DNA of 24,000 bases from Oscillospiraceae bacterium (GCA_016293865.1 JAEDDG010000024.1:1048-25047); one strand, 5' to 3'. Counted from the first letter of the stretch, positions 1-18,133 are shown. The notes: generated by a model from the sequence alone, not told the origin. Translations and numbers: made by a program.

Positions 1-60
1 CTGGGATTTTTTTAAGCGGTGAACGGCCGTCCAATCTCAAAGAAAACGGAGGAAAACAAG

Positions 61-1476
61 ATGAGAAAGATTAACATTGCAGACATTACGCTCAGCGAAT
101 CCGCTGCCGGCAAGGATCTGACTCTCAGCTTCAAGGAAAAGCTGGAGATTGCCAAGCATCTTGATAAAATGCGGGTGGACGTGCTGGAACTGCCGCAGCT
201 GGAGAATTTGAAGACAGATGCGCTTCTGGTGCGGACCATTGCCACCACTGTGCAGAACTGCGCCGTATCCATTCAGGTGGGTATGACTGAAGCAGGCGCT
301 GACAACGCCTGGGCCGCCGTGATGAAGGCGCGCCGGCCGCGGCTGCGTGTGGCCCTGCCGGTGAGCACGGTGCAGATGGAATATCTGTGCCACAAAAAGC
401 CCGCGGCCATGCTGGAACTGATTTCCGTTATGGTGAAAAAATGCGTCTCCCTGTGCGCGGATGTGGATTTTACCGCGGAGGACGCAACACGCGCCGAGCC
501 GGAATTCCTGAAAGCGGCGATTGAAGCGGCGGTGAAGGCCGGCGCGACAACAGTGACTGTCAGTGACACGGCGGGCATTATGATGCCGGAGGAATTTGCA
601 CAGTTCATTTCCGATCTGCGCGCTACAGTTCCTGAGCTGGAAAATGTATCACTGGCGGTCAAGTGCGCCAATGAGCTGAAAATGTCCGTGGCTTGCGCCA
701 TGACTGCCGTCAAAGCCGGCGCCTGCGAGATCAAGGCATGCGCTTCCGGGGATACGCTGCCGACGCTCTCGGCTCTGAGCCGGATTTTCCGCCTGCGGGG
801 CGATTCTGTGGGCGTCTGCTGCAATCTGAATTCCATGGAGATCCAGCGCCTGACCAAGCAGATTGAGTGGATTACCCGGGCGAAAAAGTCGGCCACCACG
901 CCGTTTGACACCGGCATCAGCGCCGGCAGCGGCGCGGAGTTTTCGCTCAGCAGCAATGACAGCCTGGACGAGGTGGCCAAGGCTGTGGCGCAGCTGGGCT
1001 ATGACCTGACCGAGGATGATATTGCCAAGGTTTATGAGTCTTTTTCCCACATTGCGTCCAAGAAAGCGGTTTCCTCAAAGGAGCTTGAGGCAATTGTGGC
1101 CAGCGTTGCGCTGCAGGTTCCGCCCACGTACCGGCTGAAGAGCTTTGTCATCAACAGCGGCAACCTGATTTCCGCCACAGCCAATATTTCCCTTGACAAG
1201 GGCGACCGGATGATGCAGGGCGTCAGCGTCGGCGACGGTCCTATTGACGCGGCGTTCCTTGCCATTGAAAAAATTATCGGAACCCATTATGACCTGGACG
1301 ATTTCCAGATCCAGGCCGTTACCGAGGGGCGCGAGGCCGTGGGCTCCGCTGTTGTCAAGCTGCGGTCGTCAACCGGAAAGCTTTATTCCGGCCGCGGAAT
1401 TTCCACGGATATCATCGGCGCGTCCATCCGCGCGTACATCAACGCCCTGAACAAGATCGTTTATGAGGAGAACTGA
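61..1476 (+). CDS. LeuA/HMGL-like TIM-barrel protein with a LeuA-type C-terminal regulatory domain; catalytic motifs degenerate (probable pseudoenzyme or regulatory subunit)
   Basis: ORF 19..1476. GGAGGA at 45-50 favours ATG 61 (MRKINIADITL...). The N-terminus is collinear with 2-isopropylmalate synthase, but the expected TLRDGEQ reads TLSESAA and the HxH metal-site region reads AVKCANELK. The C-terminal GDGPIDAAFLAIEKI...GRGISTDIIGASIRAYINALNKI resembles the LeuA dimerisation/allosteric domain. Confidence 0.75.
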   Translation: MRKINIADITLSESAAGKDLTLSFKEKLEIAKHLDKMRVDVLELPQLENLKTDALLVRTIATTVQNCAVSIQVGMTEAGADNAWAAVMKARRPRLRVALPVSTVQMEYLCHKKPAAMLELISVMVKKCVSLCADVDFTAEDATRAEPEFLKAAIEAAVKAGATTVTVSDTAGIMMPEEFAQFISDLRATVPELENVSLAVKCANELKMSVACAMTAVKAGACEIKACASGDTLPTLSALSRIFRLRGDSVGVCCNLNSMEIQRLTKQIEWITRAKKSATTPFDTGISAGSGAEFSLSSNDSLDEVAKAVAQLGYDLTEDDIAKVYESFSHIASKKAVSSKELEAIVASVALQVPPTYRLKSFVINSGNLISATANISLDKGDRMMQGVSVGDGPIDAAFLAIEKIIGTHYDLDDFQIQAVTEGREAVGSAVVKLRSSTGKLYSGRGISTDIIGASIRAYINALNKIVYEEN

Positions 1477-1478
1477 CC

Positions 1479-3995
1479 ATGAAACTTTCATTTTCCATTA
1501 AAGGCTGGAACGGATACAGCTGGGATGAGTTCTGCGCCCTGGCAAAGGATATGGATATTCAGGGCATTGAGCTTTACAATATTCACAATACTGCGTTTAC
1601 AGAGAAGGGCGGCCCCTTTGACGAGCATACGGCGGCGGCCACTCTGCGGGAAATGCATGCGCACAATCTGCAGATCCCGTGCATCGATTCTGTCTGCGAC
1701 ATCGCCGACGCTGCGCAGTATGAACACAACTGCACGGAAATTGACGCCTGTATCAAAACGGCGGCGAGCTTTAAAGTTCCCTATGTCCGCGTACACGCCA
1801 CCGGCGGCGACGATGTGACGGAAACCGTGATGAACTGCCTGCGCAGGGCTGTTGCAGCCGCGGAAGCGGCGGGTGTCACTGTGCTGATTGAAACGGTGGG
1901 GCTCTTTGCCGACACCGGCCGGCTGAGAAATGTCCTGAATGATTTTGCCTGCGACAATCTCGGCGCGCTGTGGGATATGCAGCATCCCTACCGCATCTGC
2001 GGCGAAAAGCCGGACACGACAATCCAGAATCTGGGTGCCTATGTCCGCCATGTGCATGTGAAGGACTCTGAAGTTGTGGACGGCCAGGTGGAATACCGCC
2101 TGATGGGCGAGGGCACGCTGCCTATGCAGGATATGATGAACGCCCTGCGCAGCGTGAACTACAACGGCTTCATTTCCCTGGAATGGGATCCCGCCTGGAT
2201 GCCTGAAATCGACGATATTGAGGTTATCCTGCCGCATTTCGTGAATTACATGAACCGGTTCAGCGATCCCTCCCGGTCGCGCTCCGTTCTGTATGACAAC
2301 CATACGCATACAGGCAAATATGTCTGGAAAAAGGAACTGATCATCGAGAAGACATTCTCTCAGGTACTGGACAGAATGGTGGAGGAATTCCCGGATCAGT
2401 ACGCCTTCAAATATACGACGCTGGATTACACCCGGACCTATGCCGAGTTCAGGGACGATGTGGACGAGTTTGCCCGCACGCTGATCGCGCTGGGCGTCAA
2501 GCCCGGCGACAAGGTGTCCATCTGGGCGACCAACATTCCCCAGTGGTATATCACCTTCTGGGCGACAACGAAGATCGGCGCGATCCTGGTGACTGTCAAT
2601 ACGGCGTACAAGGTGCATGAGGCCGAATATCTGTTCCGTCAGTCCGACACCCATACAATCGTGATGATTGACGGCTACAGGGATTCCAACTACTCTGAAA
2701 TCATCGCGGAGCTGTGCCCGGAGCTGGAGAATACCGTGCCCGGCCAGCCGTTGCATGCAAAGCGCCTGCCGTTCCTGCGCAACGTGATCACCGTCGGGTT
2801 CAGACAGAAGGGCTGCCTGACCTGGGAGGAATCCCTGCTGCTGGCAAACCGCGTGCCCCAGGAAGAGGTGGATCGCAGGGCGGCTGCGGTGGACATTCAC
2901 GACGTGTGCAACATGCAGTATACGTCGGGTACCACGGGCTTCCCCAAGGGTGTTATGCTGACCCATTACAACGTCGTCAACAACGGCAAGGCCATCGGCG
3001 ACTGCATGGATCTGTCCACGGCAGACCGGATGATGATCCAGGTGCCCATGTTCCACTGCTTCGGCATGGTGCTGGCCATGACGGCATCCATGACGCACGG
3101 GGCGACGCTGCATCCGATTCCGTATTTCTCACCGAAATCTTCGCTGGCCTGCATCAACAACGAGCATGTGACGGCCTTCCACGGCGTGCCGACCATGTTT
3201 ATTGCCATGCTCGAGCATGAAGATTTTGAAAAGACTGATTTTTCCTACATGCGTACGGGTATTATGGCCGGTTCCCCCTGTCCCATCAAGGTGATGGAGG
3301 ACGTTGTGGAAAAGATGCACATGCCGGAAATCTGCATTACGTACGGGCAGACGGAGGCATCGCCCGCCACGACCATGAGCAAGACCACAGACTCCATCGA
3401 AACCCGTGTCAATACCGTGGGCAGCCCCATCTTCGGCGTCGAGTGCAAAATTATCAATCCGGAGACAGGCGAGGAAGTGCCGGACAACGTGGACGGCGAG
3501 TTCTGCGCCCGGGGCTACAACATCATGAAGGGATATTACAAGATGCCCATCGCCACGGCGGAAGCCATTGACAAGGACGGCTGGCTCCACTCCGGAGATC
3601 TGCTGCGCCGCCTGCCGGACGGCACGTTCAAGGTTACCGGCCGCCTGAAGGATATGATTATCCGCGGCGGCGAGAACATCTACCCCAAGGAGATCGAGGA
3701 CTTCCTCTACACCCATCCCAAGGTTTCGGACGTTCAGGTCATCGGCGTGCCGGATGAGCAGTACGGCGAGGAAATCATGGCCTGCGTGATTGTGAAGGAA
3801 GGGGAAACGCTGACCGAAAGCGAGCTGCGGGAATATTGCCGCACGCGCATTGCCAAGCATAAGGTCCCGCGCTACTTCGATTTTGTGGATTCCTTCCCCA
3901 TGAATGCGGCCGGAAAGATCCTCAAATACAAAATGCGCGAACAGGCGGTGGACAAGCTGGGCCTGAAGAAGGCGGCGTCGGTTGTGACGGCCTGA
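1479..3995 (+). CDS. Fusion protein: N-terminal xylose-isomerase-like (sugar phosphate isomerase/epimerase, AP-endonuclease-2 type) TIM barrel plus C-terminal AMP-forming acyl-CoA ligase (FadD/ACSF2-like)
   Basis: One 838-aa ORF. Its ATG lies 2 nt after the stop of the upstream gene. Residues about 1-270 carry TIM-barrel metal-ligand-like positions (LIETVG, WDMQHP, HVHVKD, SLEWD). Residues about 300-838 carry adenylate-forming motifs YTSGTTGFPKGVMLTH, YGQTE, GWLHSGD and GRLKDMIIRGGENIYPKEIE. Confidence 0.85.
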   Translation: MKLSFSIKGWNGYSWDEFCALAKDMDIQGIELYNIHNTAFTEKGGPFDEHTAAATLREMHAHNLQIPCIDSVCDIADAAQYEHNCTEIDACIKTAASFKVPYVRVHATGGDDVTETVMNCLRRAVAAAEAAGVTVLIETVGLFADTGRLRNVLNDFACDNLGALWDMQHPYRICGEKPDTTIQNLGAYVRHVHVKDSEVVDGQVEYRLMGEGTLPMQDMMNALRSVNYNGFISLEWDPAWMPEIDDIEVILPHFVNYMNRFSDPSRSRSVLYDNHTHTGKYVWKKELIIEKTFSQVLDRMVEEFPDQYAFKYTTLDYTRTYAEFRDDVDEFARTLIALGVKPGDKVSIWATNIPQWYITFWATTKIGAILVTVNTAYKVHEAEYLFRQSDTHTIVMIDGYRDSNYSEIIAELCPELENTVPGQPLHAKRLPFLRNVITVGFRQKGCLTWEESLLLANRVPQEEVDRRAAAVDIHDVCNMQYTSGTTGFPKGVMLTHYNVVNNGKAIGDCMDLSTADRMMIQVPMFHCFGMVLAMTASMTHGATLHPIPYFSPKSSLACINNEHVTAFHGVPTMFIAMLEHEDFEKTDFSYMRTGIMAGSPCPIKVMEDVVEKMHMPEICITYGQTEASPATTMSKTTDSIETRVNTVGSPIFGVECKIINPETGEEVPDNVDGEFCARGYNIMKGYYKMPIATAEAIDKDGWLHSGDLLRRLPDGTFKVTGRLKDMIIRGGENIYPKEIEDFLYTHPKVSDVQVIGVPDEQYGEEIMACVIVKEGETLTESELREYCRTRIAKHKVPRYFDFVDSFPMNAAGKILKYKMREQAVDKLGLKKAASVVTA

Positions 3996-4066
3996 CGGTC
4001 CGGATCGCTGGGGCAAAACGCCCAAATCCGCGGGGAAAATTTTTGAGAATGTGTCAGGTCTGACTG

Positions 4067-4096
4067 TTGACACGGACGAAAAAATAAGAGTAAAAT
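4067..4096 (+). promoter_or_regulatory. Sigma-A-like promoter of T-box leader 1
   Basis: TTGACA (4067-4072), 18-nt spacer, TAAAAT (4091-4096), about 25 nt upstream of the Stem I K-turn. Confidence 0.6.
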
Positions 4097-4119
4097 GACA
4101 TCAATTGAATCATTGTTAA

Positions 4120-4404
4120 AGGCTGTGACGAAGACGGAAGAGCGATTTCACATCCAGAGAGCCGGGGACGGTGTGAGCCCGGCGGTGCAGATCCTCATAT
4201 TCCCATCCCTTCCGAGCTGTTGGCCCCAAAGTCCGTTCCGGATGAGTAGACGCCTTCCGTGATTGCTGCGTGAATGCATAGGGCTTGACTGAGCCTGAGA
4301 GCGGTGCCGGATAACCGGCGCAATTTGAGTGGTACCGCGGGTTTATCTTGTTTGTAAACTCGTCTCAAGGATTTCCGTATCTTTGAGACGAGTTTTTTGT
4401 TTTT
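4120..4404 (+). promoter_or_regulatory. T-box riboswitch leader 1 (tRNA-sensing transcription attenuator)
   Basis: K-turn GGC-UGU-GA (4121-4128) opposite GA-GCU (4214-4218). AGAGA bulge at 4156-4160. Distal hairpin gccggg/cccggc with loop GACGGUGUGAG (4161-4183). GAGUAG and CCGUGA (F-box-like) at about 4242-4262. T-box sequence AAUUUGAGUGGUACCGCGG at 4322-4340. UUGAG (4325-4329) can pair with CUCAA (4364-4368) in the 5' arm of the terminator, giving an antiterminator alternative. Confidence 0.85.
4357..4404 (+). terminator. Intrinsic terminator of T-box leader 1
   Basis: actcgtctcaa (4358-4368) pairs with ttgagacgagt (4383-4393), followed by TTTTTGTTTTT. It sits immediately before RBS AAGGAGG (4405-4411). 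Confidence 0.85.
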
Positions 4405-4417
4405 AAGGAGGTAAAAG

Positions 4418-6685
4418 ATGATGAGCAGCTACGTTGACAACAGCATCCTTGAGGTGGCGCACCGCATTCGTGAAATGCGCGAGATCGCGGGCTTTTCCGT
4501 GGAAGAGATGGCCGCCCAGACCAATGTGACGGCTGATATGTACCGGACGCTGGAGGCAGGCGGGACGGACCTTCCGTTCACATTTATCCACAAGTGCGCG
4601 CTGGCCTTCGGCATTGAGATTACCGACCTGATTGAAGGCAAAAGCGCCAAGCTTACCAGCTATACAGTGACCCGCAAAGGTGAGGGACGTGTGACAGCCC
4701 AGGAGGACGGGATTGAAATCCTTGACCTTGCGCCGCAGTTCCGCAAAAAAATTGCAGAGCCGTACTGGGTCCGCTATGAGTATTCTGAAGAGCTGCAGAC
4801 AAAGCCCATTCATCTGACCACACACTCCGGCCAGGAGTTTGACTATATCATCAAGGGCCGCCTGAAGGTTCAGGTCGGCAATCACATCGAAGTTCTCAAT
4901 GAGGGCGATTCGATTTACTACAACAGCTCCACGCCGCACGGCATGATTGCCGTCAACGGTGAGCCCTGCGTATTCTGCGCGGTTGTTCTGCCGGGCGAGG
5001 ATGCGGCGGAGAGCGAGCACAAAAACAGCATCATCCATCCCCGGACGGCGGAGCCCATGATCTGCGACAAGTTTGTGCGCTGCACAGAGGATGAGGAAGG
5101 CCATCTGCAGAAGATCGAGTTTACGAATGAGGATCAGTTCAACTTCGGCTTCGACGTGGTGGATGCGCTGGCGGATAAGTATCCCGATAAGCTTGCCATG
5201 CTGCACATTGCAGAGGATATGACCGAGCGCCGCTTCAGCTTTGCGGACATGAAGCGCGCCAGCGCCCAGACGGCCAACTATTTCACTTCACTGGGCATCA
5301 AAAAGGGCGACCGGGTCATGCTGGTGCTCAAGCGGCACTATCAGTTCTGGTTCTCCATGCTGGCGCTGCATAAGATGGGCGCCATCCCGATCCCGGCCAC
5401 AAACCAGCTTCTGGAGCACGATTTTGAGTACCGTTTCGATGCGGCCGGCATCTCGGCAATCGTCTGCACGGCTGACGGAGACGCTGCGCACCAGGCGGAG
5501 CTGGCCATGGAAAAATGCCCGCAGGTGACTGTCCGCGTGCTCGTAGGCGGGAAGCGGGAAGGCTGGCACGATTTTGACAGCGAGTACAAGCTTTTCTCCG
5601 GCTCTTATCCGCGTACGGAAGAGACGCCCTGCGGCGACGACATCATGTTCATGCTCTTTACTTCCGGCACCACAGGGTACCCGAAAATTGCGGAGCACAG
5701 CTACAAGTATCCGCTCGGCCACTATGTGACCGCCAAGTACTGGCACTGTGTGGAGCGGGGCGGCCTGCACCTGACCATTTCCGATACCGGCTGGGGCAAG
5801 GCGCTGTGGGGCAAGCTTTACGGCCAGTGGCTGGCAGAAGGCGCCGTATTCGTCTATGACTTTGACCGGTTCGATGCCCATAAGATTCTGCCCATGTTTG
5901 CAAAATACAACATTACAACCTTCTGTGCGCCGCCCACCATGCTGCGCATGATGGTCAAGGAGGATCTGTCACAGTACGATCTGAGCTCCGTCACCCATAT
6001 GACGACGGCAGGCGAGGCGCTGAATCCCGAGGTCTTCCGCCAGTTCGAGGCGGCCACCGGCCTGCAGATCATGGAAGGTTTCGGCCAGACGGAGACGACG
6101 CTCCTGATCGGCAACCTGATCGGCGATACACCCAAGCTGGGATCCATGGGCAAGCCCTCGCCCCAGTATGACGTGGTGATTGTGGACGCACAGGGCAAGG
6201 AAGTCCCGGTCGGTGAAAACGGCGAAATCTGCGTGCGTACAGACAAGGGCGTGCCCTGCGGCCTGTTCAAGGGCTATTACAACGCGCCGGATAAAACGGC
6301 CGAGGTCTGGCACGACGGCCTGTACCACACCGGCGACGTGGCCTGGAAGGATGAGGACGGCTATCTGTGGTACGTCAGCCGCATCGACGACGTGATCAAA
6401 TCCTCCGGCTACCGCATCGGGCCGTTTGAGATTGAGAGCGTGATCATGGAGCTTCCGTATGTTCTGGAGTGCGGCGTTTCTGCGGCTCCGGATCCGGTGC
6501 GCGGCCAGGTGGTCAAGGCGTCCATCGTTCTGACTAAGGGAACCGAGGGGACCGAGGAGCTGAAAAAAGAGATCCAGGATTATGTGAAAAAGCATACCGC
6601 ACCGTACAAATATCCGCGTATTGTGGTCTTCCGTGACAGTCTGCCCAAGTCCATCAGCGGCAAGATCCAGCGCAACAAGCTGTAA
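4418..6685 (+). CDS. XRE-family HTH + cupin + medium-chain acyl-CoA synthetase (MACS/ACSM-like, AMP-forming) fusion, paralog 1
   Basis: 755-aa ORF with AAGGAGG 6 nt upstream. HTH at about aa 10-70 (FSVEEMAAQTNVTADMYRTLEAG). Cupin at about aa 130-190 (HSGQEFDYIIKG...STPHGMIAV). Ligase motifs FTSGTTGYPK, GFGQTET, YHTGDVA, RIDDVIKSSGYRIGPFEIES, SGKIQRNKL. Confidence 0.9.
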   Translation: MMSSYVDNSILEVAHRIREMREIAGFSVEEMAAQTNVTADMYRTLEAGGTDLPFTFIHKCALAFGIEITDLIEGKSAKLTSYTVTRKGEGRVTAQEDGIEILDLAPQFRKKIAEPYWVRYEYSEELQTKPIHLTTHSGQEFDYIIKGRLKVQVGNHIEVLNEGDSIYYNSSTPHGMIAVNGEPCVFCAVVLPGEDAAESEHKNSIIHPRTAEPMICDKFVRCTEDEEGHLQKIEFTNEDQFNFGFDVVDALADKYPDKLAMLHIAEDMTERRFSFADMKRASAQTANYFTSLGIKKGDRVMLVLKRHYQFWFSMLALHKMGAIPIPATNQLLEHDFEYRFDAAGISAIVCTADGDAAHQAELAMEKCPQVTVRVLVGGKREGWHDFDSEYKLFSGSYPRTEETPCGDDIMFMLFTSGTTGYPKIAEHSYKYPLGHYVTAKYWHCVERGGLHLTISDTGWGKALWGKLYGQWLAEGAVFVYDFDRFDAHKILPMFAKYNITTFCAPPTMLRMMVKEDLSQYDLSSVTHMTTAGEALNPEVFRQFEAATGLQIMEGFGQTETTLLIGNLIGDTPKLGSMGKPSPQYDVVIVDAQGKEVPVGENGEICVRTDKGVPCGLFKGYYNAPDKTAEVWHDGLYHTGDVAWKDEDGYLWYVSRIDDVIKSSGYRIGPFEIESVIMELPYVLECGVSAAPDPVRGQVVKASIVLTKGTEGTEELKKEIQDYVKKHTAPYKYPRIVVFRDSLPKSISGKIQRNKL

Positions 6686-6758
6686 AACGCCTGCGGCAAT
6701 ACCGGACAATTTGCCGGGAATTTCAGCAGAATCCGGAGGGATTTCGCCAATATACCCA

Positions 6759-6787
6759 TTGACAACCTTTTTTCGGTGTGGTAATCT
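6759..6787 (+). promoter_or_regulatory. Sigma-A-like promoter of T-box leader 2
   Basis: TTGACA (6759-6764), 17-nt spacer, TAATCT (6782-6787), with TG 1 nt upstream (TGgTAATCT, extended -10-like). Confidence 0.55.
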
Positions 6788-6803
6788 TTACTCAATTCAG
6801 AAA

Positions 6804-7089
6804 AGCTTTGACGGAGAGTGCCCTGGCAGGCCGTGTTTCAGAGAATTGGCGTCTGGTGCGAGCCAATAATACGCAGCCAGCGGTTTGTAGCTCCCGAGCT
6901 GGAAGGAAGAAAGCGCGTGCGTGAGTAGAACCTTCCCGTGACTGCTGCGTAAAGGCATAGGGCTTGACAGAGTCTGAGAGTGGCGCTGGTTTCCGGCGCA
7001 ATTTGAGTGGTACCGCGGGTCTTTATATGAACGTATAAAACTCGTCTCAAAGATTACAACATCTTTGGGGCGGGTTTTTGTTTTACCGC
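6804..7089 (+). promoter_or_regulatory. T-box riboswitch leader 2 (tRNA-sensing transcription attenuator)
   Basis: K-turn AGC-UUU-GA (6804-6811) opposite GA-GCU (6896-6900). AGAGA at 6840-6844. Distal hairpin attggc/gccaat with loop GUCUGGUGCGA. GAGUAG and CCGUGA elements at about 6922-6941. A 28-nt block ccggcgcaatttgagtggtaccgcgggt (6993-7020) is identical to 4315-4342. Terminator ctcgtctcaaagat / atctttggggcggg (7041-7074, several G-U pairs) followed by TTTTTGTTTT. Confidence 0.85.
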
Positions 7090-7110
7090 CCCGGAAAACG
7101 GAGGAAAATT

Positions 7111-9378
7111 ATGGTTGCTGTGAACACAAAAATTCAGGAAATTGCCGGCCGTATCCGCGAGCTGCGGGAGGTTATGGGTCATACGGTGGGCGATATGGCA
7201 GCTCTGACCGGGATCTCCGAGGAAGAGTATGCGGCCTGTGAAAGCGGCCAGCGTGATCTGAGCTTTGCATTTCTGTACCTTTGCGCCCAGGCGTTCCGCG
7301 TGGACGTGACGGACATCATTCAGGGCCAGAGCCCCAAACTGAAAAGCTATTCCATCACCCGCGCGGGCGAGGGACAGCTGATCAACCGCGCCCATGATAT
7401 GGAATATTTCAACCTGGCCGGCTCTTTCCGCAAGAGAATTGCGGATCCTCTGTATGTCAACATCACCTATGTGGAAGGCGCCGAGCGCCGTCCCATTGAA
7501 GTGACCACCCATGAGGGCCAGGAGTGCGACATTGTGCTCAAGGGCACAATGAAGCTGCAGGTCGGCGAGCATGTGGAAATCCTGCACGAGGGCGACTGCG
7601 CCTATTATGACAGCTCCACGCCGCACGGCATGATTGCAGTCGGCGGCAAGGACTGCGTTTTTTACGCAATTGTTCTGACGCCGAACAAGGACGAGGAGAG
7701 CAAAAGCGCCGACGTGGAAACAAGATCCACGGAGAAGGACAACACCATTCGCGTCTGGAACGAGTTTGTGGAGCCTGTTGAGGATGAGAAGGGCTGCTTG
7801 AAAAGCATTTCCTTCAAGAACACGGACCGCTTCAATTTTGCCTTTGACGTGGTCGACAGGCTGGGACAGGAAAAACCGGACAAGACGGCCATCCTGCATG
7901 TGAGCAGGGATCATACGGCACGACGCATTACCTTCGGCGAGATGAAGCGCGCCAGCGCCCAGACGGCCAACTATTTCAAGTCCCTGGGCATCAAAAAAGG
8001 CGACCGGGTCATGCTGATTCTCAAGCGTCATTATCAGTACTGGTTCTGCGTCAACGCCCTGCACAAAATCGGCGCCATTGCGATTCCGGCCATGTGCCAG
8101 CTGCTGGACCATGACATTGAATACCGGTTCAATGCCGCCGGCGTGTCCACCATTATCTGCACGGCGGACGGCGATACCGCGCATCAGGTGGAACTGGCGT
8201 GTGCCCGCTGCCCGCAGGTTGTCAATAAGATCCTTGTGGGCGGAAAGCGGGAAGGCTGGCGTGATTATGACGAGGAATACCAGCTGTTTTCCGGCCGGTT
8301 CCCCCGCACGGCGGATACGCCCTGCGGCGACGACCTGATGCTTATGTACTTCACTTCCGGCACGACCGGCTACCCGAAAATGGCGGCGCACAGCTACAAG
8401 TATCCGCTGGGCCATTTTGTAACGGCGAAATACTGGCAGTGCGTGAATCCCGAAGGACTGCATCTGACCATTTCCGATACCGGCTGGGCCAAGGCCGGCT
8501 GGGGCAAGATTTACGGCCAGTGGCTGTGCGAAGGCGGTCTGTTTGTCTATGACTTCGACCGGTTCGACGCCCATGATATCCTGCCCATGTTTGCCCAGTA
8601 TCACATTACAACCTTCTGCGCGCCGCCCACCATGCTGCGCCTGATGGTCAAAGAGGATATCAGCAAGTACGATCTGAGCTCGATCGAGCACATGACGACG
8701 GCCGGCGAGGCGCTGAATCCGGAGGTCTTCCGCCAGTTCAAGGCGGCAACGGGCCTGAACATTATGGAGGGCTTCGGCCAGACGGAGACGACGGTGATCG
8801 TCGGCAATCTGGAGGGCACGAAGGTCCGTATCGGGTCCATGGGCAAGGCGAATCCCCAGTATGATGTGGACATCGTCGATCCCCAGGGGAACAGCGTGCC
8901 CGTGGGCGAAAACGGCGAGATCGTGATCCGCACAGACAAGGGCGCGCCCTGCGGCCTGCTGAAGGAATACTACAAGGCGCCGGACAAAACGCTGGAGACC
9001 TGGCATGACGGCATGTATCACACAGGCGACGTGGCCTGGCGCGATGAGGACGGTTATTTCTGGTATGTGGGCCGGATTGACGATGTGATCAAATCTTCCG
9101 GCTACCGTATCGGCCCGTTCGAAATCGAGAGCGTGATCATGGAGCTGCCGTACGTTCTGGAGTGCGGCGTGTCCGCGGCGCCGGATCCGGTCCGCGGCCA
9201 GGTGGTCAAGGCGTCCATCGTCCTTACAAAGGGAACCGAGGGAACCGAAGAGCTGAAAAAAGAGATTCAGGCTTATGTCAAGGAGCATACGGCTCCGTAT
9301 AAATATCCGCGCATTGTTGTGTTCCTGGACTCCCTGCCCAAGACCACCAGCGGCAAGATCCAGCGCAACAAGCTGTAA
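7111..9378 (+). CDS. XRE-family HTH + cupin + medium-chain acyl-CoA synthetase fusion, paralog 2
   Basis: The ORF track starts at 7078, but that start lies inside the T-box terminator U-tract. ATG 7111 is preceded by GGAGGA and gives 755 aa (MVAVNTKIQEIAGRIRELRE...), the same length and architecture as paralog 1. The last 101 aa differ from paralog 1 at 5 positions. Confidence 0.9.
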   Translation: MVAVNTKIQEIAGRIRELREVMGHTVGDMAALTGISEEEYAACESGQRDLSFAFLYLCAQAFRVDVTDIIQGQSPKLKSYSITRAGEGQLINRAHDMEYFNLAGSFRKRIADPLYVNITYVEGAERRPIEVTTHEGQECDIVLKGTMKLQVGEHVEILHEGDCAYYDSSTPHGMIAVGGKDCVFYAIVLTPNKDEESKSADVETRSTEKDNTIRVWNEFVEPVEDEKGCLKSISFKNTDRFNFAFDVVDRLGQEKPDKTAILHVSRDHTARRITFGEMKRASAQTANYFKSLGIKKGDRVMLILKRHYQYWFCVNALHKIGAIAIPAMCQLLDHDIEYRFNAAGVSTIICTADGDTAHQVELACARCPQVVNKILVGGKREGWRDYDEEYQLFSGRFPRTADTPCGDDLMLMYFTSGTTGYPKMAAHSYKYPLGHFVTAKYWQCVNPEGLHLTISDTGWAKAGWGKIYGQWLCEGGLFVYDFDRFDAHDILPMFAQYHITTFCAPPTMLRLMVKEDISKYDLSSIEHMTTAGEALNPEVFRQFKAATGLNIMEGFGQTETTVIVGNLEGTKVRIGSMGKANPQYDVDIVDPQGNSVPVGENGEIVIRTDKGAPCGLLKEYYKAPDKTLETWHDGMYHTGDVAWRDEDGYFWYVGRIDDVIKSSGYRIGPFEIESVIMELPYVLECGVSAAPDPVRGQVVKASIVLTKGTEGTEELKKEIQAYVKEHTAPYKYPRIVVFLDSLPKTTSGKIQRNKL

Positions 9379-9387
9379 GGAGAACTT

Positions 9388-10071
9388 ATGCTTACAAAAC
9401 GCATTTCCCTGTTTGCCGGCCATTACGGCAGCGGAAAGACGAATATCGCCGTGAACTGCGCGCTGTGCGCCAGGGAAGCGGGGCAGAACGTGACCATTGC
9501 CGACCTGGATATTGTCAACCCGTATTTCCGGACAAAGGACAGCGAGGCGCTTTTGAAGCGTCATGGGATCGGCCTTGTCTGCTCCGAATATGCCAATACA
9601 AATCTGGATATCCCGGCACTGCCCAAGGAACTGTATGCCATATTGGCACGCAGGGATTCAGCGGTTATAATGGATATCGGCGGCGATGACCGCGGCGCCG
9701 TGGCGCTGGGCCGCTATACGCCGATGATTCTGGAAGAAAACGATTACGACATGTTTTTTGTGGCCAATTTTTACCGGCCGCTGACCCGTACGCCGGAAGA
9801 AATGATCCAGATCATGCGTGAGATTGAAACGGCTTCCGGCCTGCCGTTTACGGCAATCATCAACAACTCGAACCTTGCCGGCGACACACAGGCAGACACA
9901 GTGACAGACACTGTGGGGAAGGCGCGGGAACTGTCCCGGATAACGGGGCTGCCCATACGCGCCACCTGTGTGGAGCAGAGGCTTTTCGAAAGCCTGAAGG
10001 ATCAGATACCGGATCTTGTTCCGCTGCATCTTCAGGAAAAATATTTTGACATTGTAAATGGAGGGATCTAA
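9388..10071 (+). CDS. P-loop NTPase (SIMIBI/MinD-ParA-CooC-like), function unknown
   Basis: Walker A AGHYGSGKTN near the N-terminus and a Walker-B-like VIMDIGGDD. RBS AAGGAGA overlaps the stop of the upstream ligase gene. Its stop lies 1 nt before the ferredoxin-subunit start. Confidence 0.75.
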   Translation: MLTKRISLFAGHYGSGKTNIAVNCALCAREAGQNVTIADLDIVNPYFRTKDSEALLKRHGIGLVCSEYANTNLDIPALPKELYAILARRDSAVIMDIGGDDRGAVALGRYTPMILEENDYDMFFVANFYRPLTRTPEEMIQIMREIETASGLPFTAIINNSNLAGDTQADTVTDTVGKARELSRITGLPIRATCVEQRLFESLKDQIPDLVPLHLQEKYFDIVNGGI

Positions 10072-10072
10072 A

Positions 10073-10279
10073 ATGGCGAAGCTGACATTTAAAACCGACC
10101 TGTGCAAGGGATGCGGACTGTGCGTCAACGCATGTCCGAAGGGCGTGCTTGAAATTGCGCGCGACAAAATCAACCTCAAGGGGTATTCTCCCGTGGTTGC
10201 CAGGGATATGGATAAATGCATCGGTTGTGCATTCTGCGCAACCATGTGTCCCGACTGCATTATTACAGTAGAAAAGTGA
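10073..10279 (+). CDS. 2-oxoacid:ferredoxin oxidoreductase delta subunit (2x[4Fe-4S] ferredoxin)
   Basis: Two CxxCxxCxxxCP motifs (CKGCGLCVNACP, CIGCAFCATMCP). ATG 10073 (MAKLTFK...) is preceded by GGAGGG. The ORF-track start 10058 overlaps the previous gene. Confidence 0.85.
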   Translation: MAKLTFKTDLCKGCGLCVNACPKGVLEIARDKINLKGYSPVVARDMDKCIGCAFCATMCPDCIITVEK

Positions 10280-10289
10280 GGTGCCGATT

Positions 10290-11351
10290 ATGGCAGAAAA
10301 AGTATTGATGAAGGGCAATGAAGCCATTGCCGAGGCAGCCATCCGCGCCGGCTGCCGTCACTATTTCGGATATCCCATCACGCCGCAGACAGAAATCGCG
10401 GCATATATGGCCAAGAAAATGCCGAAAATCGGCGGAACATTTCTCCAGGCGGAAAGTGAAATTGCCGCCATTAATATGGTCTACGGCGTATCCTCTGCCG
10501 GCTTCCGGGTCATGACCTCGTCATCCAGCCCCGGTGTCAGCCTGAAGAGCGAGGGCCTGTCCTATCTGGCGGGCTGCGACCTGCCGGCGCTTGTGGTCAA
10601 TGTCCAGCGCGGCGGCCCCGGCCTCGGCGGCATTCAGCCCTCCCAGTCCGATTATTTTATGGCCACCAAGGGCGGCGGACACGGCGATTTCCGCATGATC
10701 GTTCTGGCGCCTGCTTCTGTTCAGGAAATGGCCGGCCTGACCTTCAAGGCTTTTGAACTGGCCGATCAGTACAGAATGACCGCCATGCTGCTGGCTGACG
10801 GAACTCTGGGTCAGATGATGGAGGCCATCACGTTCCCGGAGACTGAGGTCAGGACATTTGACAAGCCCTGGGCCGTCACCGGCACGCAGATGAAGCGCCC
10901 CCACAACATCATCAATTCTCTGGCGCTCGTACCGGATGTGCTGGAAAAGATGAATTTTGACCGGTATAAGAAATACGCGGAAATCGAGGAAAAGGAGCCC
11001 ATGTACGAATCGTACATGATGGATGACGCGGAAATCTGTGTCGTCGCCTTCGGTATTGCCTCCCGCGTGTCCAAGAATGCAATTATGGCCGCAAGGGCTG
11101 AGGGCATCAAGGTGGGCATGATCCGGCCCATCACGCTCTGGCCGTTCCCCACAAAGGCGCTGGCAGAAGCGGCGCAGAAGTGCAGGGCGTTTGTCTCTGT
11201 TGAACTCAACATGGGCCAGATGATTGAAGATGTCCGGCTGGCTACCGGCTGCGCGCGGCCTGTTTCCCTGTGCAACAGAGCCGGCGGTATGATCCCCACG
11301 CCGGATCATGTCCTTGCATCCATTCGGGAAGCCAACAAGGGAGGTAACTGA
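10290..11351 (+). CDS. 2-oxoacid:ferredoxin oxidoreductase alpha subunit (KorA/VorB-type)
   Basis: MAEKVLMKGNEAIAEAAIRAGCRHYFGYPITPQTEI is the typical OFOR alpha N-terminus. GAGGTG sits 6 nt upstream of ATG 10290. Confidence 0.9.
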   Translation: MAEKVLMKGNEAIAEAAIRAGCRHYFGYPITPQTEIAAYMAKKMPKIGGTFLQAESEIAAINMVYGVSSAGFRVMTSSSSPGVSLKSEGLSYLAGCDLPALVVNVQRGGPGLGGIQPSQSDYFMATKGGGHGDFRMIVLAPASVQEMAGLTFKAFELADQYRMTAMLLADGTLGQMMEAITFPETEVRTFDKPWAVTGTQMKRPHNIINSLALVPDVLEKMNFDRYKKYAEIEEKEPMYESYMMDDAEICVVAFGIASRVSKNAIMAARAEGIKVGMIRPITLWPFPTKALAEAAQKCRAFVSVELNMGQMIEDVRLATGCARPVSLCNRAGGMIPTPDHVLASIREANKGGN

Positions 11352-11353
11352 TT

Positions 11354-12112
11354 ATGGTCGTTTTTGAGAAACCTCATGCCCTCACCGATGCACCGCTGCA
11401 TTACTGCCCCGGCTGCACGCACGGCATTGTTCACCGCCTTGTGGCGGAAGCCATCGACGCCCTCGGAATTGAGGGGAAGACCATCGGCGTGGCGCCGGTC
11501 GGCTGCTCCGTCATGGCCTATAATTATTTTTCATGCGATATGATTGAAGCGGCGCACGGCCGCGCACCGGCTGTGGCAACCGGCGTAAAGCGGGCGCTGC
11601 CGGACAACATTGTCTTTACATATCAGGGCGACGGCGATCTGGCGTCCATCGGCACGGCGGAGACCGTTCACGCTGCAGCGAGAAACGAGAACATTACGAT
11701 TATCTTCATCAACAACGCCATTTACGGCATGACCGGCGGCCAGATGGCGCCCACGTCGCTGCCCGGCCAGGTGACGCAGACTTCGCCGTACGGCCGCGAT
11801 CCGCAGCTGTGCGGTTTCCCGGTTAAAATCTGCGAAATGCTTTCTCAGCTGGAAGGTCCGGAGTATATTGAGCGCGTGGCGGTCAACAACGTCAAGAACA
11901 TCAAAAAAGCCGGCAAAGCCATTCTGAAAGCTTTTAAGAACCAGACGGAGAACAAGGGCTTCTCGCTGATTGAAGTTGTCTCCACCTGTCCCACCAACTG
12001 GGGTATGACGCCGCAGGACGCGATGAAGTGGGTGGATGAAAAAATGATTCCCTATTACCCGCTGGGCGTTTACAAAGACAGAAGCGCGGAAAAAGCAGAG
12101 GAGGGGAAATAA
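11354..12112 (+). CDS. 2-oxoacid:ferredoxin oxidoreductase beta subunit (TPP-binding)
   Basis: CPGCTHG cysteine motif and TPP motif YQGDGDLASIG...NNAIYGMTGGQ. Tightly packed against the alpha and gamma genes. Confidence 0.9.
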   Translation: MVVFEKPHALTDAPLHYCPGCTHGIVHRLVAEAIDALGIEGKTIGVAPVGCSVMAYNYFSCDMIEAAHGRAPAVATGVKRALPDNIVFTYQGDGDLASIGTAETVHAAARNENITIIFINNAIYGMTGGQMAPTSLPGQVTQTSPYGRDPQLCGFPVKICEMLSQLEGPEYIERVAVNNVKNIKKAGKAILKAFKNQTENKGFSLIEVVSTCPTNWGMTPQDAMKWVDEKMIPYYPLGVYKDRSAEKAEEGK

Positions 12113-12645
12113 TGGCCACTTCACAGATTCTGATTGCGGGTTTCGGCGGACAGGGCGTCCTTTTCGCCGGGAAGTTTTTGGCCTACAAGGCCCTGACTGA
12201 GAATAAGCAGCTGAGCTGGCTGCCGTCCTACGGCCCGGAAATGCGCGGCGGCACGGCCAACTGCAGCGTGATTATCAGCGACGATCCGGTTGGTTCTCCC
12301 ATCATTACCACGCCGGACTGCCTGATTGCCATGAACCGGCCGTCTCTTGACAAATATGTGGACGCAGTGGCGCCCGGCGGCATGATCCTTGTGGATTCGT
12401 CCCTGATCAGCGTCGAGGTCGAACGCACGGATGTCCGCACCTTCTATATTCCGGCAACCAAAATGGCAAATGACGCGGGCTTCGCGACGCTTGCGAACAT
12501 GGTTCTTGTGGGCAAACTGATCAAGGAATCCGGCGTTGTTTCTTTTGAAAATAACAAAGAGACTTTTGAAAAGTTCATTCCGGCAAAGAAAGCAAATCTG
12601 ATTGAGATCAACTGCCAGGCCCTGCAGACCGGGTATGATTATTAA
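12112..12645 (+). CDS. 2-oxoacid:ferredoxin oxidoreductase gamma subunit
   Basis: N-terminal [16 protein letters not shown] and [19 protein letters not shown] are typical of OFOR gamma subunits. TAATG overlap with the beta subunit gene. Confidence 0.9.
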
Positions 12646-12663: not shown

Positions 12664-13737
12664 ATGCTTGACATTAAGATCACCAAAACCACACAGCCCA
12701 AGCAAAAGCCCGCGCCGGGTCAGAAACTCGGCTTCGGCCATATTTTCACCGACCATATGTTCATCATGAACTATACGGAAGGAAAAGGCTGGCATGATCC
12801 GCGGATCGTTCCGTTCCAGAATCTGAGCCTGTCTCCCGCGGCGATGGTTTTTCACTACGGTCAGGAAATGTTCGAAGGCCTGAAGGCCTATAAGAATTCC
12901 GACGGCGAAGTTTTCCTTTTCCGCCCGGATATGAACGCCAAGCGCACCAATTCTTCCAATGAGCGTCTGTGTATCCCGCAGCTGCCGGAAGAGGATTTTG
13001 TCCAGGCTGTCAGAACGGTTGTGGATGTGGACCGCGACTGGGTCCCGACGGATCCCGGCACGTCCCTGTATATCCGTCCGTTCATCATCGCAACGGATGA
13101 GTTCCTGGGTGTTGCGCCGTCCAAGACGTATCTGTTCATGGTCATTCTGTCACCCAGCGGCGCTTATTATGAAAGCGGACTGGAGCCTGTGGGCATCTGG
13201 ATTGAGGATGAGTATGTCCGTGCGGTCCGCGGCGGCATGGGCTTTGCCAAAACCGGCGGCAACTATGCGGCCAGCCTGATCGGCCAGGTGAAGGCGCACA
13301 ACGACGGTTATTCCCAGGTTCTGTGGCTGGACGGTGTGGAGCGCAAGTACGTTGAGGAAGTCGGCTCCATGAATATTTTCTTCAAAATTGCCGGCAAAGT
13401 GGTTACGCCCATGCTCAACGGCAGCATCCTGCCGGGCATTACCCGCAACTCTGTCATTACCCTGTGCAAAGAGTGGGGCTATGAGGTTGAGGAACGGAAG
13501 GTTTCTGCTGAAGAGCTGATTCAGGCGCATGCAGACGGCACGCTGGAAGAGGTTTTCGGCACCGGTACTGCAGCCGTCATTTCTCCTGTCGGCAAGCTGC
13601 GCTATAAGGACGATGTGATGACGATCCAGGACGGCAGGACCGGCGAACTGAGCCACCGTCTCTATGATACCATTACCGGCATTCAGCTGGGCAAGCTGCC
13701 GGACACGCACGGCTGGCGTGTAAAAGTCGGCGAATAA
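12664..13737 (+). CDS. ilvE: Branched-chain amino acid aminotransferase (class IV, long form)
   Basis: 357 aa. Motifs FGHIFTDHMF, YGQEMFEGLKAY, RAVRGGMGFAKTGGNYAASL and ILPGITR match long-form IlvE (YbgE/YwaA type). RBS AAGGAAAGGA upstream. Confidence 0.9.
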   Translation: MLDIKITKTTQPKQKPAPGQKLGFGHIFTDHMFIMNYTEGKGWHDPRIVPFQNLSLSPAAMVFHYGQEMFEGLKAYKNSDGEVFLFRPDMNAKRTNSSNERLCIPQLPEEDFVQAVRTVVDVDRDWVPTDPGTSLYIRPFIIATDEFLGVAPSKTYLFMVILSPSGAYYESGLEPVGIWIEDEYVRAVRGGMGFAKTGGNYAASLIGQVKAHNDGYSQVLWLDGVERKYVEEVGSMNIFFKIAGKVVTPMLNGSILPGITRNSVITLCKEWGYEVEERKVSAEELIQAHADGTLEEVFGTGTAAVISPVGKLRYKDDVMTIQDGRTGELSHRLYDTITGIQLGKLPDTHGWRVKVGE

Positions 13738-13829: not shown

Positions 13830-14765
13830 GTGCACCCTTTGGTTTATAATAATGTGCTGGAGGCGGTCGGACAGACGCCCGTCATTCGGCTGATGCGCAT
13901 GAGCAATCCCAATCATGCCCAGGTTCTTGTCAAATATGAAGGGCTGAACGTGGGCGGTTCGATCAAAACGCGGACTGCGCTGAATATGATCAACGCGGCC
14001 GAGCGTGCCGGGATTATCCGTCCGGATACGATTATTGTGGAGCCGACCAGCGGAAACCAGGGCATCGGTCTGGCACTGGTCGGTGCTGTCCGCGGCTATA
14101 AAACTGTGATTATCATGCCCGATTCGGTCAGTGTGGAGCGGCGCAAACTGATTGAGCATTACGGCGCGCAGCTTGTGCTGATCCGGGACGAGGGCAACAT
14201 CGGCGACTGCATTGAAAAGTGTATTCAGACGGCAAATGACATGGCGAAAGCGGACAGCCGCGTTTATATTCCACAGCAGTTTTCCAATCCGAACAATCCA
14301 CTGGTGCATAAGCATTTCACGGCGCTGGAGATTCTCCAGCAGGTTGCAGGGCCCATTCACGGCTTCTGCTCCGGAATCGGTACGGGCGGCACAATTTCCG
14401 GCATCGGCGAGACGCTGAAAAGCGTTTATCCGGATATGACCATCTGGGCTGTTGAGCCGGAGAACGCGGCGATTCTGGCCGGAGGAACGGTCGGCTCCCA
14501 TCTTCAGATGGGAATCGGAGACGGCCTGATTCCGGAAAATCTGAACACGAAGATTTACGACGATATCTACATTGTCAGTGATGATGAGGCCATCGGAACA
14601 GCCAAGGATCTGGCGCGGTACGAGGGTCTGATGTGCGGCATTTCCAGCGGCACAAATGTGGCCGCGGCGCTGAAGCTTGCGGAGAAGCTGGGGAAGGGAA
14701 AAACAGTTGTGACCATTCTGCCGGACACGGCGGAGCGCTATTTTTCCACGCCGCTGTTTGACTGA
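13830..14765 (+). CDS. cysK: Cysteine synthase A / O-acetylserine sulfhydrylase (PLP-dependent)
   Basis: GQTPVIRL, GGSIKTR (PLP lysine), TSGNQGIGLA and GIGTGGTISG motifs. The start is uncertain: GTG 13830 overlaps the GAGAGG RBS, so TTG 13839 (spacing about 7 nt) is at least as likely. Confidence 0.85.
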   Translation: MHPLVYNNVLEAVGQTPVIRLMRMSNPNHAQVLVKYEGLNVGGSIKTRTALNMINAAERAGIIRPDTIIVEPTSGNQGIGLALVGAVRGYKTVIIMPDSVSVERRKLIEHYGAQLVLIRDEGNIGDCIEKCIQTANDMAKADSRVYIPQQFSNPNNPLVHKHFTALEILQQVAGPIHGFCSGIGTGGTISGIGETLKSVYPDMTIWAVEPENAAILAGGTVGSHLQMGIGDGLIPENLNTKIYDDIYIVSDDEAIGTAKDLARYEGLMCGISSGTNVAAALKLAEKLGKGKTVVTILPDTAERYFSTPLFD

Positions 14766-17476: not shown

Positions 17477-18133
17477 TTATCGATGTATCAAAAATTTATT
17501 TTTTGTAAATGAAATGATTCCACTTTGTTGCATTTTGGAAAGCTCGGCGCACATGGCGCTGCGGTCAACTGCGAGGAAGTCCGCCAGCTGCTGCCGGTTG
17601 AATGGAATCTCAAAGCTGTCGCTTCCGGCCAGATGCGCCTGCTCGGACAGATAGGACATCAGCTTTTCACGTGTGGTGCGGCAGGACATGTGCATCAGCT
17701 TCCGGTTCAGCTGCAGCGACTGTGTAGAAATGCTGAGCAGGAGATTTTCAATCATTTTGGAGTGACGCTGGCAGGATTTTGTGCAGGGAGCTGAGATTTT
17801 GTCAATGGGGATCAGCATGACCGTGCAGCGCTCAACAGCAATTATGCTGACATCCAGCGGCAGGGAAGAGGCCGCATAAACCTCGGCAAACAGACTTCCT
17901 GCGGGCTTGACAGCGAGAATATTCCGCCGTCCCCAGATGTCCTCGCGGATTATATGCGCGCTGCCTTCCAGTAAAAGCCCGATGCTGTCCGTGCTGTCTC
18001 CGTTGCACAGGATATAGGCGCCGCGCTCGAACCGGCGGATTGCCGGGGAAAGGCATTTCAGAAGGTTTTTGATCTCATCCTGGCCGATTCCGGAAAACAG
18101 CACATTTTTTTCAAGAACATTTAAGGTGTCCAT
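17477..18133 (-). CDS. Crp/Fnr family transcriptional regulator
   Basis: N-terminal cNMP-binding-like domain (LFSGIGQDEIKNLL...) and C-terminal HTH (REKLMSYLSEQ...IPFNRQQLADFLAVDRSAMCAELSKMQQSGII). Confidence 0.85.
   Translation of the reverse strand: MDTLNVLEKNVLFSGIGQDEIKNLLKCLSPAIRRFERGAYILCNGDSTDSIGLLLEGSAHIIREDIWGRRNILAVKPAGSLFAEVYAASSLPLDVSIIAVERCTVMLIPIDKISAPCTKSCQRHSKMIENLLLSISTQSLQLNRKLMHMSCRTTREKLMSYLSEQAHLAGSDSFEIPFNRQQLADFLAVDRSAMCAELSKMQQSGIISFTKNKFLIHR

Follow-up and report, generated by a model that had tools for sequence, protein, structure and literature searches.

Tandem T-box-controlled acyl-CoA synthetase genes with isoleucine and valine specifiers: an anciently duplicated unit with a probable role in branched-chain amino acid salvage

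Introduction

T-box leaders induce the genes behind them in response to uncharged tRNA, and AUC, GUA, and CUC are the usual specifier codons of isoleucine, valine, and leucine T-boxes. Here, we analyzed a 24,000-nt stretch of DNA (the window) from an Oscillospiraceae bacterium (GCA_016293865.1, JAEDDG010000024.1:1048-25047), in which two adjoining units, each composed of a promoter, a T-box leader and a gene, encode paralogous acyl-coenzyme A (acyl-CoA) synthetases that carry an N-terminal helix-turn-helix (HTH)-cupin module. All coordinates are those of the whole stretch, and features lie on the + strand unless stated otherwise. Duplication of T-boxes followed by a change of specificity is a described mode of evolution (Wels et al. 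2008, PMC2494555; PMC3766115), and acyl-CoA ligases and ferredoxin oxidoreductases are not named as T-box targets in either paper. A limited literature search found no T-box control of acyl-CoA synthetases, of 2-oxoisovalerate:ferredoxin oxidoreductase (VOR), of isobutyrate use, or of branched-chain fatty acid activation.

AMP-forming ligases are irreversible towards acyl-CoA. According to Allison and co-workers, rumen anaerobes reportedly make branched-chain amino acids (BCAAs) by reductive carboxylation of branched-chain volatile fatty acids, and reductive carboxylation of propionate to 2-oxobutyrate for isoleucine synthesis occurs in anaerobes. The reductive-carboxylation pathway to BCAAs is mentioned in PMC7356843; a limited literature search found no description of its activating enzymes or of their regulation. 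Among characterized ligases, MacS prefers 2-methylbutyrate and adenylates C3-C8 acids (PMC10455477). MbcS activates 2-methylbutyrate and isobutyrate with a Km below 10 uM and isovalerate poorly (PMC10026030).

We propose that the two units are an anciently duplicated pair of isoleucine and valine T-box units, which probably serve the tRNA-gated salvage of 2-methylbutyrate to isoleucine and of isobutyrate to valine. T-box identity, specifiers, orthology, gene order, homology, and residue patterns were observed directly and are presented first.

Results

Two adjoining units with isoleucine and valine T-box leaders

Unit A spans 4067-6685 and unit B spans 6759-9378. Gene A (4418-6685, with the Gly460 codon at 5795-5797) and its paralogue gene B (7111-9378, with the Ala460 codon at 8488-8490) each encode a 755-aa protein in which HTH_3/HTH_31 and Cupin_2 domains precede a MacS/MbcS-like acyl-CoA synthetase composed of AMP-binding and AMP-binding_C domains. 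The original prediction of two units with the same layout and equal protein length was accurate, coordinates included. The two proteins are 68% identical (517/755). Gene B starts at the ATG at 7111, which has GGAGG upstream; the TTG at 7078 was rejected as a start, as it falls within the T-run of the terminator.

Promoter A (4067-4096) reads TTGACA-18-TAAAAT and matches the consensus at 11/12 positions. Promoter B (6759-6787), TTGACA-17-TAATCT with a TGn extended -10 (TGG), was read directly from the sequence; it was missing from the promoter scan because its -10 hexamer matches at only 3/6 positions. For comparison, 80 related loci were collected, one genome per species, and their copies and leaders are called class A or class B after the window units. 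The class-B orthologous leaders carry TTGACA-17-TGnTATAAT at the same place as promoter B, and a TTGACA/TGnTATAAT-like promoter lies immediately 5' of every leader in the related loci. Immediately 5' of the -35 element of promoter A there is a perfect palindrome (TGTCAG-GT-CTGACA, 4040-4066), which is not conserved in the other loci. The terminator scan of the window gave no terminator between gene A and leader B, and no tRNA gene lies within the window.

Leader A (4116-4370) matches Rfam family RF00230 with 56.7 bits (E 9.4e-11) and leader B (6799-7052) with 87.2 bits (E 1.3e-18). The leaders were seen at an E-value threshold; the gathering score of RF00230 is 93 bits, and a scan at that threshold was empty because both leaders score below it. 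The low score of leader A is explained by the unusually small class-A specifier loop, which is devoid of an S-turn. Orthologous leaders exceed the gathering score in class A (L046, 104.7 bits; L070, 95.8 bits) as well as in class B (L003, 97.2 bits; L064, 104.6 bits; L070, 110.2 bits). Alignment to RF00230 identified the kink-turn (K-turn), specifier loop, AG bulge, and distal loop in Stem I (K-turn and Stem I at 4122-4217 in leader A; Stem I at 6805-6899 in leader B). The T-box cores are located at 4320-4342 and 6998-7020, with the UGGU bulge at 4330-4333 and 7008-7011, respectively. In the same alignment, a single segment of each leader forms both the antiterminator 3' strand and the terminator 5' arm; in terminator A this arm, ACUCGUCUCAAG, overlaps the antiterminator 3' strand. 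Intrinsic terminator A (4356-4403; 4356-4395 in the terminator scan) was identified by that scan, a folding z of -4.63, and the RF00230 alignment, and intrinsic terminator B (7037-7084; 7037-7078 in the scan) by the scan and a folding z of -3.80. Furthermore, UGGUACCGCG was found in all A and B leaders and the UGGU bulge in every leader. This bulge fits the discriminator A73 of tRNA-Ile and tRNA-Val.

Specifiers were located by anchoring on the K-turn and the helix beneath the specifier loop. The script, which scores the C-stem of the K-turn, left 6 mis-picks, and these were read by eye. The specifier is AUC at 4205-4207 in leader A, followed by C4208, and GUA at 6887-6889 in leader B, followed by G6890. 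AUC is present in all class-A leaders (71/71; 68 by script and 3 by eye). For the 69 class-B leaders, the script returned GUA in 59 and GUC in 7, and reading the remaining three by eye gave GUA in L009 and L010 and CUG in L076. The synonymous alternation between GUA and GUC supports reading the class-B triplet as a valine codon. By their codons, leader A specifies isoleucine and leader B valine. The base after the class-A codon is A in 40 leaders, C in 24, and G in 7, the window having C; after the class-B codon it is a purine in most leaders. Leader B of the window has GUU where the GAA of the S-turn is expected. In the B leader of L076 (8363-8627; gene from 8699), the leucine codon CUG is followed by G, and its protein carries Ala at cupin position 132 in place of the Glu of the other B copies. 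This leader may be a further re-specification or an error of the metagenome-assembled genome (MAG). Specialization to different tRNAs and acids had been predicted; the AUC and GUA specifiers bear out the tRNA part, and the acid part stays a plausible inference.

The pairing of Stem I was examined by covariation. In class A, 95.8% of cells are paired and 15/19 pairs show compensatory changes; in class B, the values are 96.7% and 11/12. With slid partners, pairing was 26-47%, and 0/500 shuffles reached the observed values. The basal two helices belonged to the rule by which sequences had been selected, so only the upper helices of Stem I count as independent covariation evidence. The class-B basal helices were placed by hand, the middle of class-B Stem I was not alignable by MAFFT, and RNAalifold recovered the distal helix only.

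In global alignments of the two window leaders, the 3' halves are 80% identical and the Stem I halves 54%, confirming the high similarity noted for the former and the low identity noted for the latter. The original prediction took the unrelated Stem I as a mark of re-specification. However, the Stem I halves have identities of 0.655 among A leaders, 0.646 among B leaders, and 0.60-0.64 between A and B, and orthologues from different genomes lie at 0.60-0.67. Stem I thus drifts equally among orthologues, and its divergence carries little information; only the specifier and the motifs are informative.

The tandem duplication is ancient

The pair of T-box-A-gene and T-box-B-gene occurs in almost every related locus of sufficient length, in more than 60 genomes. 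These loci come nearly all from MAGs of Oscillospiraceae, Acutalibacteraceae, Ruminococcaceae, Christensenellaceae, and unclassified Clostridia, many of them from rumen or gut. The midpoint root of a neighbor-joining tree of 138 translated copies parts all first-position copies (81/81) from all second-position copies (57/57). Identity to the respective orthologues is 70-74% for copy A of the window and 64-71% for copy B. The clean split of A and B, together with the tandem arrangement across genomes, indicates that the duplication is older than the divergence of these lineages; it is ancient and not specific to this genome. The predicted tandem duplication is therefore real, but it is common to many Clostridia MAGs and not an event of this genome. 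A recent duplication was rejected, given that the pair is widely conserved and the tree separates all A from all B copies.

The leaders fit the same history. Between A and B, the 3' halves have an identity of 0.75, with 0.72 between genomes and 0.77 within a genome; orthologues give 0.74 and 0.76, and either half shares only 0.63-0.66 with the leucine leader of its own genome. The A and B halves are thus closer to each other than to the leucine leader, which supports the prediction that leader and gene were duplicated together, as a single unit. The predicted identical 28-nt block is exact (4315-4342 = 6993-7020) and is the longest run shared by both leaders. Most of it is the T-box core GCAATTTGAGTGGTACCGCGGGT, whose conservation across the A and B leaders of every genome is about 100%, and the median identical run is 21-22 nt even for leaders from different genomes. 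The block was rejected as a sign of recency, since the T-box core is universal among the leaders.

Four loci (L018, L043, L057, and L060) are without copy B, so that the isoleucine T-box and gene A stand directly before the CbiA-VOR genes described below; IlvE is also present in 3 of the 4 (not in L057). They represent either the ancestral single-copy state or loss of B. The ancestral class could not be determined from a MacS-rooted neighbor-joining tree of the ligase domain, in which neither class is monophyletic. The HTH-cupin-ligase architecture itself is common: at least 8,000 database proteins match it, and the best 120 all hold cupin and ligase domains. Their database names are "cupin domain-containing protein" or "acetyl-CoA synthetase".

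Purifying selection and episodic gene conversion

The last 101 residues of A and B differ at 5 positions, exactly the number that had been predicted. Over this C-terminal stretch, nonsynonymous divergence (dN) between the window genes is 0-0.055 and synonymous divergence (dS) is 0.53-0.96. Conservation of residues 651-700 reaches 97% over the whole set of 138 proteins, indicating that the near identity of the C-termini results from purifying selection across the family.

An unlikely alternative is that the similarity of the leader 3' halves and of the C-terminal 101 residues stems mainly from recent duplication or gene conversion and not from purifying selection. Codon choice speaks in its favor. 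Within a genome, residues identical in A and B use the same codon at a frequency of 0.524 in the N-terminal part and 0.668 in the C-terminal domain, while the codon usage of both genes predicts 0.468 and 0.465, respectively. Controls gave 0.45-0.50 for pairs from different genomes matched for GC content at third codon positions (GC3) and 0.49-0.51 for orthologues; within-genome use exceeds the GC3-matched pairs (0.50) and the orthologues (0.507) alike. In addition, for the C-domain segment, the paralogue of the same genome is the nearest of 137 nucleotide sequences in 18/57 genomes (median rank 2), whereas for the HTH-cupin segment it is never the nearest (median rank 85, 57 genomes). The leader 3' halves point the same way, being more alike within a genome than across genomes (0.77 against 0.72). 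However, the window genes still show a dS of 0.53-0.96 over the last 100 codons, residues 651-700 are conserved whatever the genome, the T-box core is identical in every leader of every genome, and the pair is found in more than 60 genomes with clean whole-protein orthology.

Taken together, the excess of same-codon use and the nearness of the own paralogue indicate that episodic gene conversion contributed, and the dS, the family-wide conservation, and the clean orthology make it a secondary, episodic contributor. Episodic conversion homogenizes the ligase, most strongly at its 3' end, and selection maintains the class differences in specifier, HTH-cupin module, and residue 460. With a dS of 0.5-1, conversion between the two window genes is not recent. 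The prediction that many synonymous differences reflect purifying selection and not recent conversion was thus right as to the synonymous differences and the selection; it was imprecise as to conversion, as synonymous sites of the paralogues show graded concerted evolution.

Ligase family and residues that distinguish the two classes

The closest solved structure for the ligase domain is MacS of Methanosarcina acetivorans (PDB 3ETC; E 3e-184, residues 227-753), to which A is 52% and B 50% identical. The best NCBIfam family is MbcS (A, 421.1 bits; B, 426.3 bits). Of the pocket residues whose roles are described in PMC10455477, W442 retains MacS Trp259, and Gly556 stands where Acs has Trp414; both positions are invariant in the 138 proteins.

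Distances between and within classes were compared domain by domain. They are 0.556 between and 0.362 within classes for the HTH, 0.467 and 0.275 for the cupin, 0.345 and 0.291 for the first part of the ligase, 0.280 and 0.215 for its second part, and 0.112 and 0.100 for the C-terminal domain. Thirteen positions are at least 90% conserved in each class yet differ between classes, and 12 of them lie in the HTH-cupin module and 1 in the ligase. Class-specific divergence is almost wholly in the HTH-cupin module. The predicted stronger divergence of the HTH-cupin part and the N-terminal ligase subdomain is accordingly upheld for the former but not for the latter, where distances between classes barely exceed those within them.

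The sole perfect discriminator in the ligase is position 460, where all A proteins (81/81) carry Gly and all B proteins (57/57) carry Ala. It stands immediately after a conserved GW and aligns with Val310 of E. coli Acs, one of four residues lining the acetate pocket; MacS has Gly there. At position 463, A proteins carry Leu and B proteins either Met or Ala. If the larger acid goes with the smaller residue, the pattern at position 460 is consistent with 2-methylbutyrate as the acid of A and isobutyrate as that of B. We propose that A is a 2-methylbutyrate-CoA ligase and B an isobutyrate-CoA ligase.

A tentative alternative is that subfunctionalization was regulatory only, both ligases being equally broad for isobutyrate and 2-methylbutyrate and differing in the tRNA that switches them and perhaps in the cupin ligand; this would imply an OR-gate on a shared pathway. 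It is favored by the small excess of between-class over within-class distances in both ligase parts and the C-domain, by the location of 12/13 class-specific positions in the HTH-cupin module, and by the ligase-domain tree with MacS as outgroup, in which neither class is monophyletic. It is further favored by the four loci that carry copy A alone before VOR and by MbcS, which takes both acids with a Km below 10 uM (PMC10026030). Against it, position 460 remains Gly in every A and Ala in every B protein despite homogenized surroundings, position 463 differs as well, and the alignment of 460 with a pocket residue of Acs, with the smaller side chain for the larger acid, fits specialization of the enzymes.

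The HTH-cupin module

Cupin_2 scores 45.3 (A) and 47.4 (B) against a threshold of 27.2. The HTH matches are at or near threshold, with 22.8 for A and 25.3 for B in HTH_3 (threshold 23) and 25.0 and 27.2, respectively, in HTH_31 (threshold 27). For the N-terminal 230 residues, the only PDB sequence match was a weak one, 1Y9Q. His136, Glu140, and His174 of the cupin do not vary among the 138 proteins (positions 132-174 correspond to 4812-4945 in A and 7505-7638 in B). At position 132, A has His and B has Glu; at position 169, the residues are Asn and Asp, respectively. These class-specific residues near the invariant His/Glu/His suggest that the ligand pocket of the sensor has been specialized; residues 132-174 look like a metal or ligand site with class-specific surroundings. 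A search around the promoters of the loci for a conserved palindrome that could serve the HTH domain as operator gave none.

One possible, if doubtful, reading of these patterns is that the HTH-cupin module acts as a second sensor at the protein level, specialized together with the T-box, which binds isoleucine- or valine-related ligands and gates the ligase allosterically or binds DNA. The ligands would be the amino acid, the 2-oxo acid or the acyl-CoA, and the proteins would be bifunctional enzyme-regulators in the manner of BirA or PutA. If so, each BCAA would be sensed twice, as tRNA charging by RNA and as a metabolite by protein, and the target of subfunctionalization would be the sensor and not the catalytic pocket.

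VOR, IlvE and a predicted leucine unit adjoin the pair

Behind gene B lies a gene for a CbiA/ParA-like P-loop protein of 227 aa (9388-10071), followed by VOR genes encoding a delta subunit, a 2x[4Fe-4S] ferredoxin of 73 aa (10058-10279), a VorB-like (alpha) subunit (10281-11351; NF005507, 538.3 bits against a cut-off of 399), a thiamine pyrophosphate (TPP) subunit (11354-12112), and a gamma subunit (12112-12645). The domains of these proteins are POR_N/PFOR_II, TPP_enzyme_C, and POR. IlvE, a branched-chain aminotransferase, follows at 12664-13737 (NF009897, 503.8 bits against a cut-off of 307). The terminator scan showed no terminator between gene B and the CbiA-VOR-IlvE genes. The order A-B-CbiA-VOR is kept in most loci that extend far enough, with IlvE after it in the window and some loci. 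The CbiA-like protein, which has no NCBIfam match, is kept at its place in nearly all related loci; at a guess, it may act in VOR maturation or Fe-S delivery. Two promoter-like sites with 11/12 matches lie inside and at the end of the CbiA-like gene, before VOR (9643-9671 and 10046-10074), and might give VOR expression independent of the valine T-box.

Upstream of unit A is an operon (19-3995) with a LeuA-like synthase (19-1476) and a fusion of a triose-phosphate isomerase (TIM) barrel to an AMP-binding domain (1479-3995). The synthase is divergent and well below the LeuA cut-offs, and the TIM barrel of the fusion is xylose-isomerase-like. Twelve related loci have this operon, and in 11 of them it follows a leucine (CUC) T-box (L031, at 656-882; L003, L018, L033, L046, L049, L051, L054, L064, L070, and L075); the operon of L021 gave no T-box match at the gathering score. 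The leucine leader of the window is predicted to lie before base 1. The TIM-barrel-AMP-binding fusion may be an isovalerate-activating enzyme. The neighborhood thus holds three ligases behind leucine, isoleucine, and valine switches, the leucine leader being seen in related loci.

These neighbors bear on a further explanation, that copy A activates propionate, giving propionyl-CoA, 2-oxobutyrate, and then the ordinary isoleucine pathway, or that the ligases use other small acids unrelated to BCAAs. We regard it as very unlikely. The route from propionate to 2-oxobutyrate in anaerobes would accommodate it. So would the range of MacS, which adenylates C3-C8 acids (PMC10455477). However, A has the smaller Gly460, like MacS, and B has Ala, and an enzyme for propionate should be the one with the tighter pocket. 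Moreover, the adjoining oxidoreductase matches VorB, the 3-methyl-2-oxobutanoate enzyme, above the cut-off, and the trio of isoleucine, valine, and leucine T-boxes parallels the three branched acids.

Further 3' in the window are genes for CysK (cysteine synthase A, above cut-off; 13830-14765), a DUF711 protein (15262-16620), and a Crp-family regulator (17477-18133, - strand), with no evident connection to the ligase pair.

Discussion

The salvage of branched acids into isoleucine and valine that we consider probable would proceed as follows. An ancient tandem duplication produced two separately transcribed units, each with a promoter, a terminating T-box, and an HTH-cupin-acyl-CoA-synthetase gene. 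Uncharged tRNA-Ile(GAU) would pair with the AUC of leader A and uncharged tRNA-Val(UAC) with the GUA of leader B, and the free NCCA end of the tRNA (discriminator A73) would pair with the UGGU bulge and favor the antiterminator over the terminator, so that each gene would be transcribed only when the cognate amino acid is scarce. The ligases would then form CoA thioesters, A mainly from 2-methylbutyrate and B mainly from isobutyrate. The co-transcribed VOR would reductively carboxylate these acyl-CoAs to 2-oxo-3-methylvalerate and 2-oxoisovalerate, which IlvE would transaminate to isoleucine and valine. In related loci, a third ligase of another family behind the leucine T-box would plausibly serve the conversion of isovalerate to leucine. 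Selection keeps apart the specifier codon, the HTH-cupin module, and residue 460, and common constraint acts on the remaining ligase and on the 3' half of the leader, both partly homogenized by gene conversion. Induction of T-boxes by uncharged tRNA and the irreversibility of the ligases argue for the biosynthetic direction. The tRNA response, the substrates, the direction of flux, and the role of the cupin are what we infer in this scheme.

Several observations weigh against it. Both window leaders score below the RF00230 gathering score (56.7 and 87.2 against 93 bits). The class-A specifier loop is atypical, with AC on the 5' side, Y-AUC-N on the 3' side, and no AGUA/GAA S-turn, and the codon is followed by C instead of the usual purine in the window and in a third of class-A orthologues. 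Both proteins fall far below the MbcS equivalog cut-off (421.1 and 426.3 against 850 bits). The ligase domains show little class-specific divergence, and neither class is monophyletic in the ligase-domain tree with MacS as outgroup, so both enzymes may accept both acids, as MbcS does. VOR stands behind the valine leader only, and the scheme does not account for its supply when isoleucine alone is scarce, nor does it account for the HTH-cupin module.

The T-box specifiers serve as built-in labels for three unannotated acyl-CoA ligases of gut and rumen Clostridia. If the proposed salvage is true, the missing activation step is named for the route from branched-chain fatty acids to BCAAs, which underlies the isoacid requirement of fiber-degrading anaerobes, and that route would be switched on by tRNA charging, separately for each amino acid. 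Furthermore, with residue 460 and the sensor domain distinct amid homogenized paralogues, the pair is a natural experiment that makes the specificity determinants directly testable.

The regulatory mechanism is that of a standard transcriptional T-box, and within the limited literature search the regulated genes, which belong to an uncharacterized, ecologically relevant enzyme family, are new to T-box control. The leaders share the K-turn, specifier loop, AG bulge, distal loop, UGGN sequence, and antiterminator/terminator of the transcription-attenuating T-boxes of B. subtilis tyrS, ileS, and valS. Unlike in known T-box targets, the cargo is an acyl-CoA synthetase fusion and a VOR operon and not an aminoacyl-tRNA synthetase, a classical biosynthetic gene, or a transporter. 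The class-A leader also departs from the typical T-box in its minimal specifier loop, the lack of an S-turn, and the frequent C after the codon. The pair fits the duplication and change of specificity described by Wels et al.; it differs in that the specificity of the cargo enzyme may here have shifted in step and in that the protein has evolved in concert as a mosaic, in which only the sensor module and one pocket residue stay apart.

Like the HTH_3-cupin regulators (PDB 1Y9Q, PuuR-like), the N-terminal module combines a putative XRE-type HTH with a Cupin_2 domain behind it, in which His/Glu/His are conserved; unlike in these regulators, it is fused to a complete enzyme, and no conserved operator was seen near the promoters. 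With MacS and S. aureus MbcS, A and B have in common the ligase domain, W442, and Gly556, and both characterized enzymes prefer alpha-branched C4/C5 acids. A and B differ from them in the N-terminal HTH and cupin of about 230 residues, the T-box control, and the linkage to VOR and IlvE, and S. aureus MbcS feeds fatty-acid synthesis, unlike the role proposed here. The route of the rumen anaerobes leads from the acid to the acyl-CoA, by a ferredoxin-dependent step to the 2-oxo acid, and then to the amino acid; by homology, the locus encodes all of these steps, and most of the related loci belong to Clostridia of the rumen and gut.

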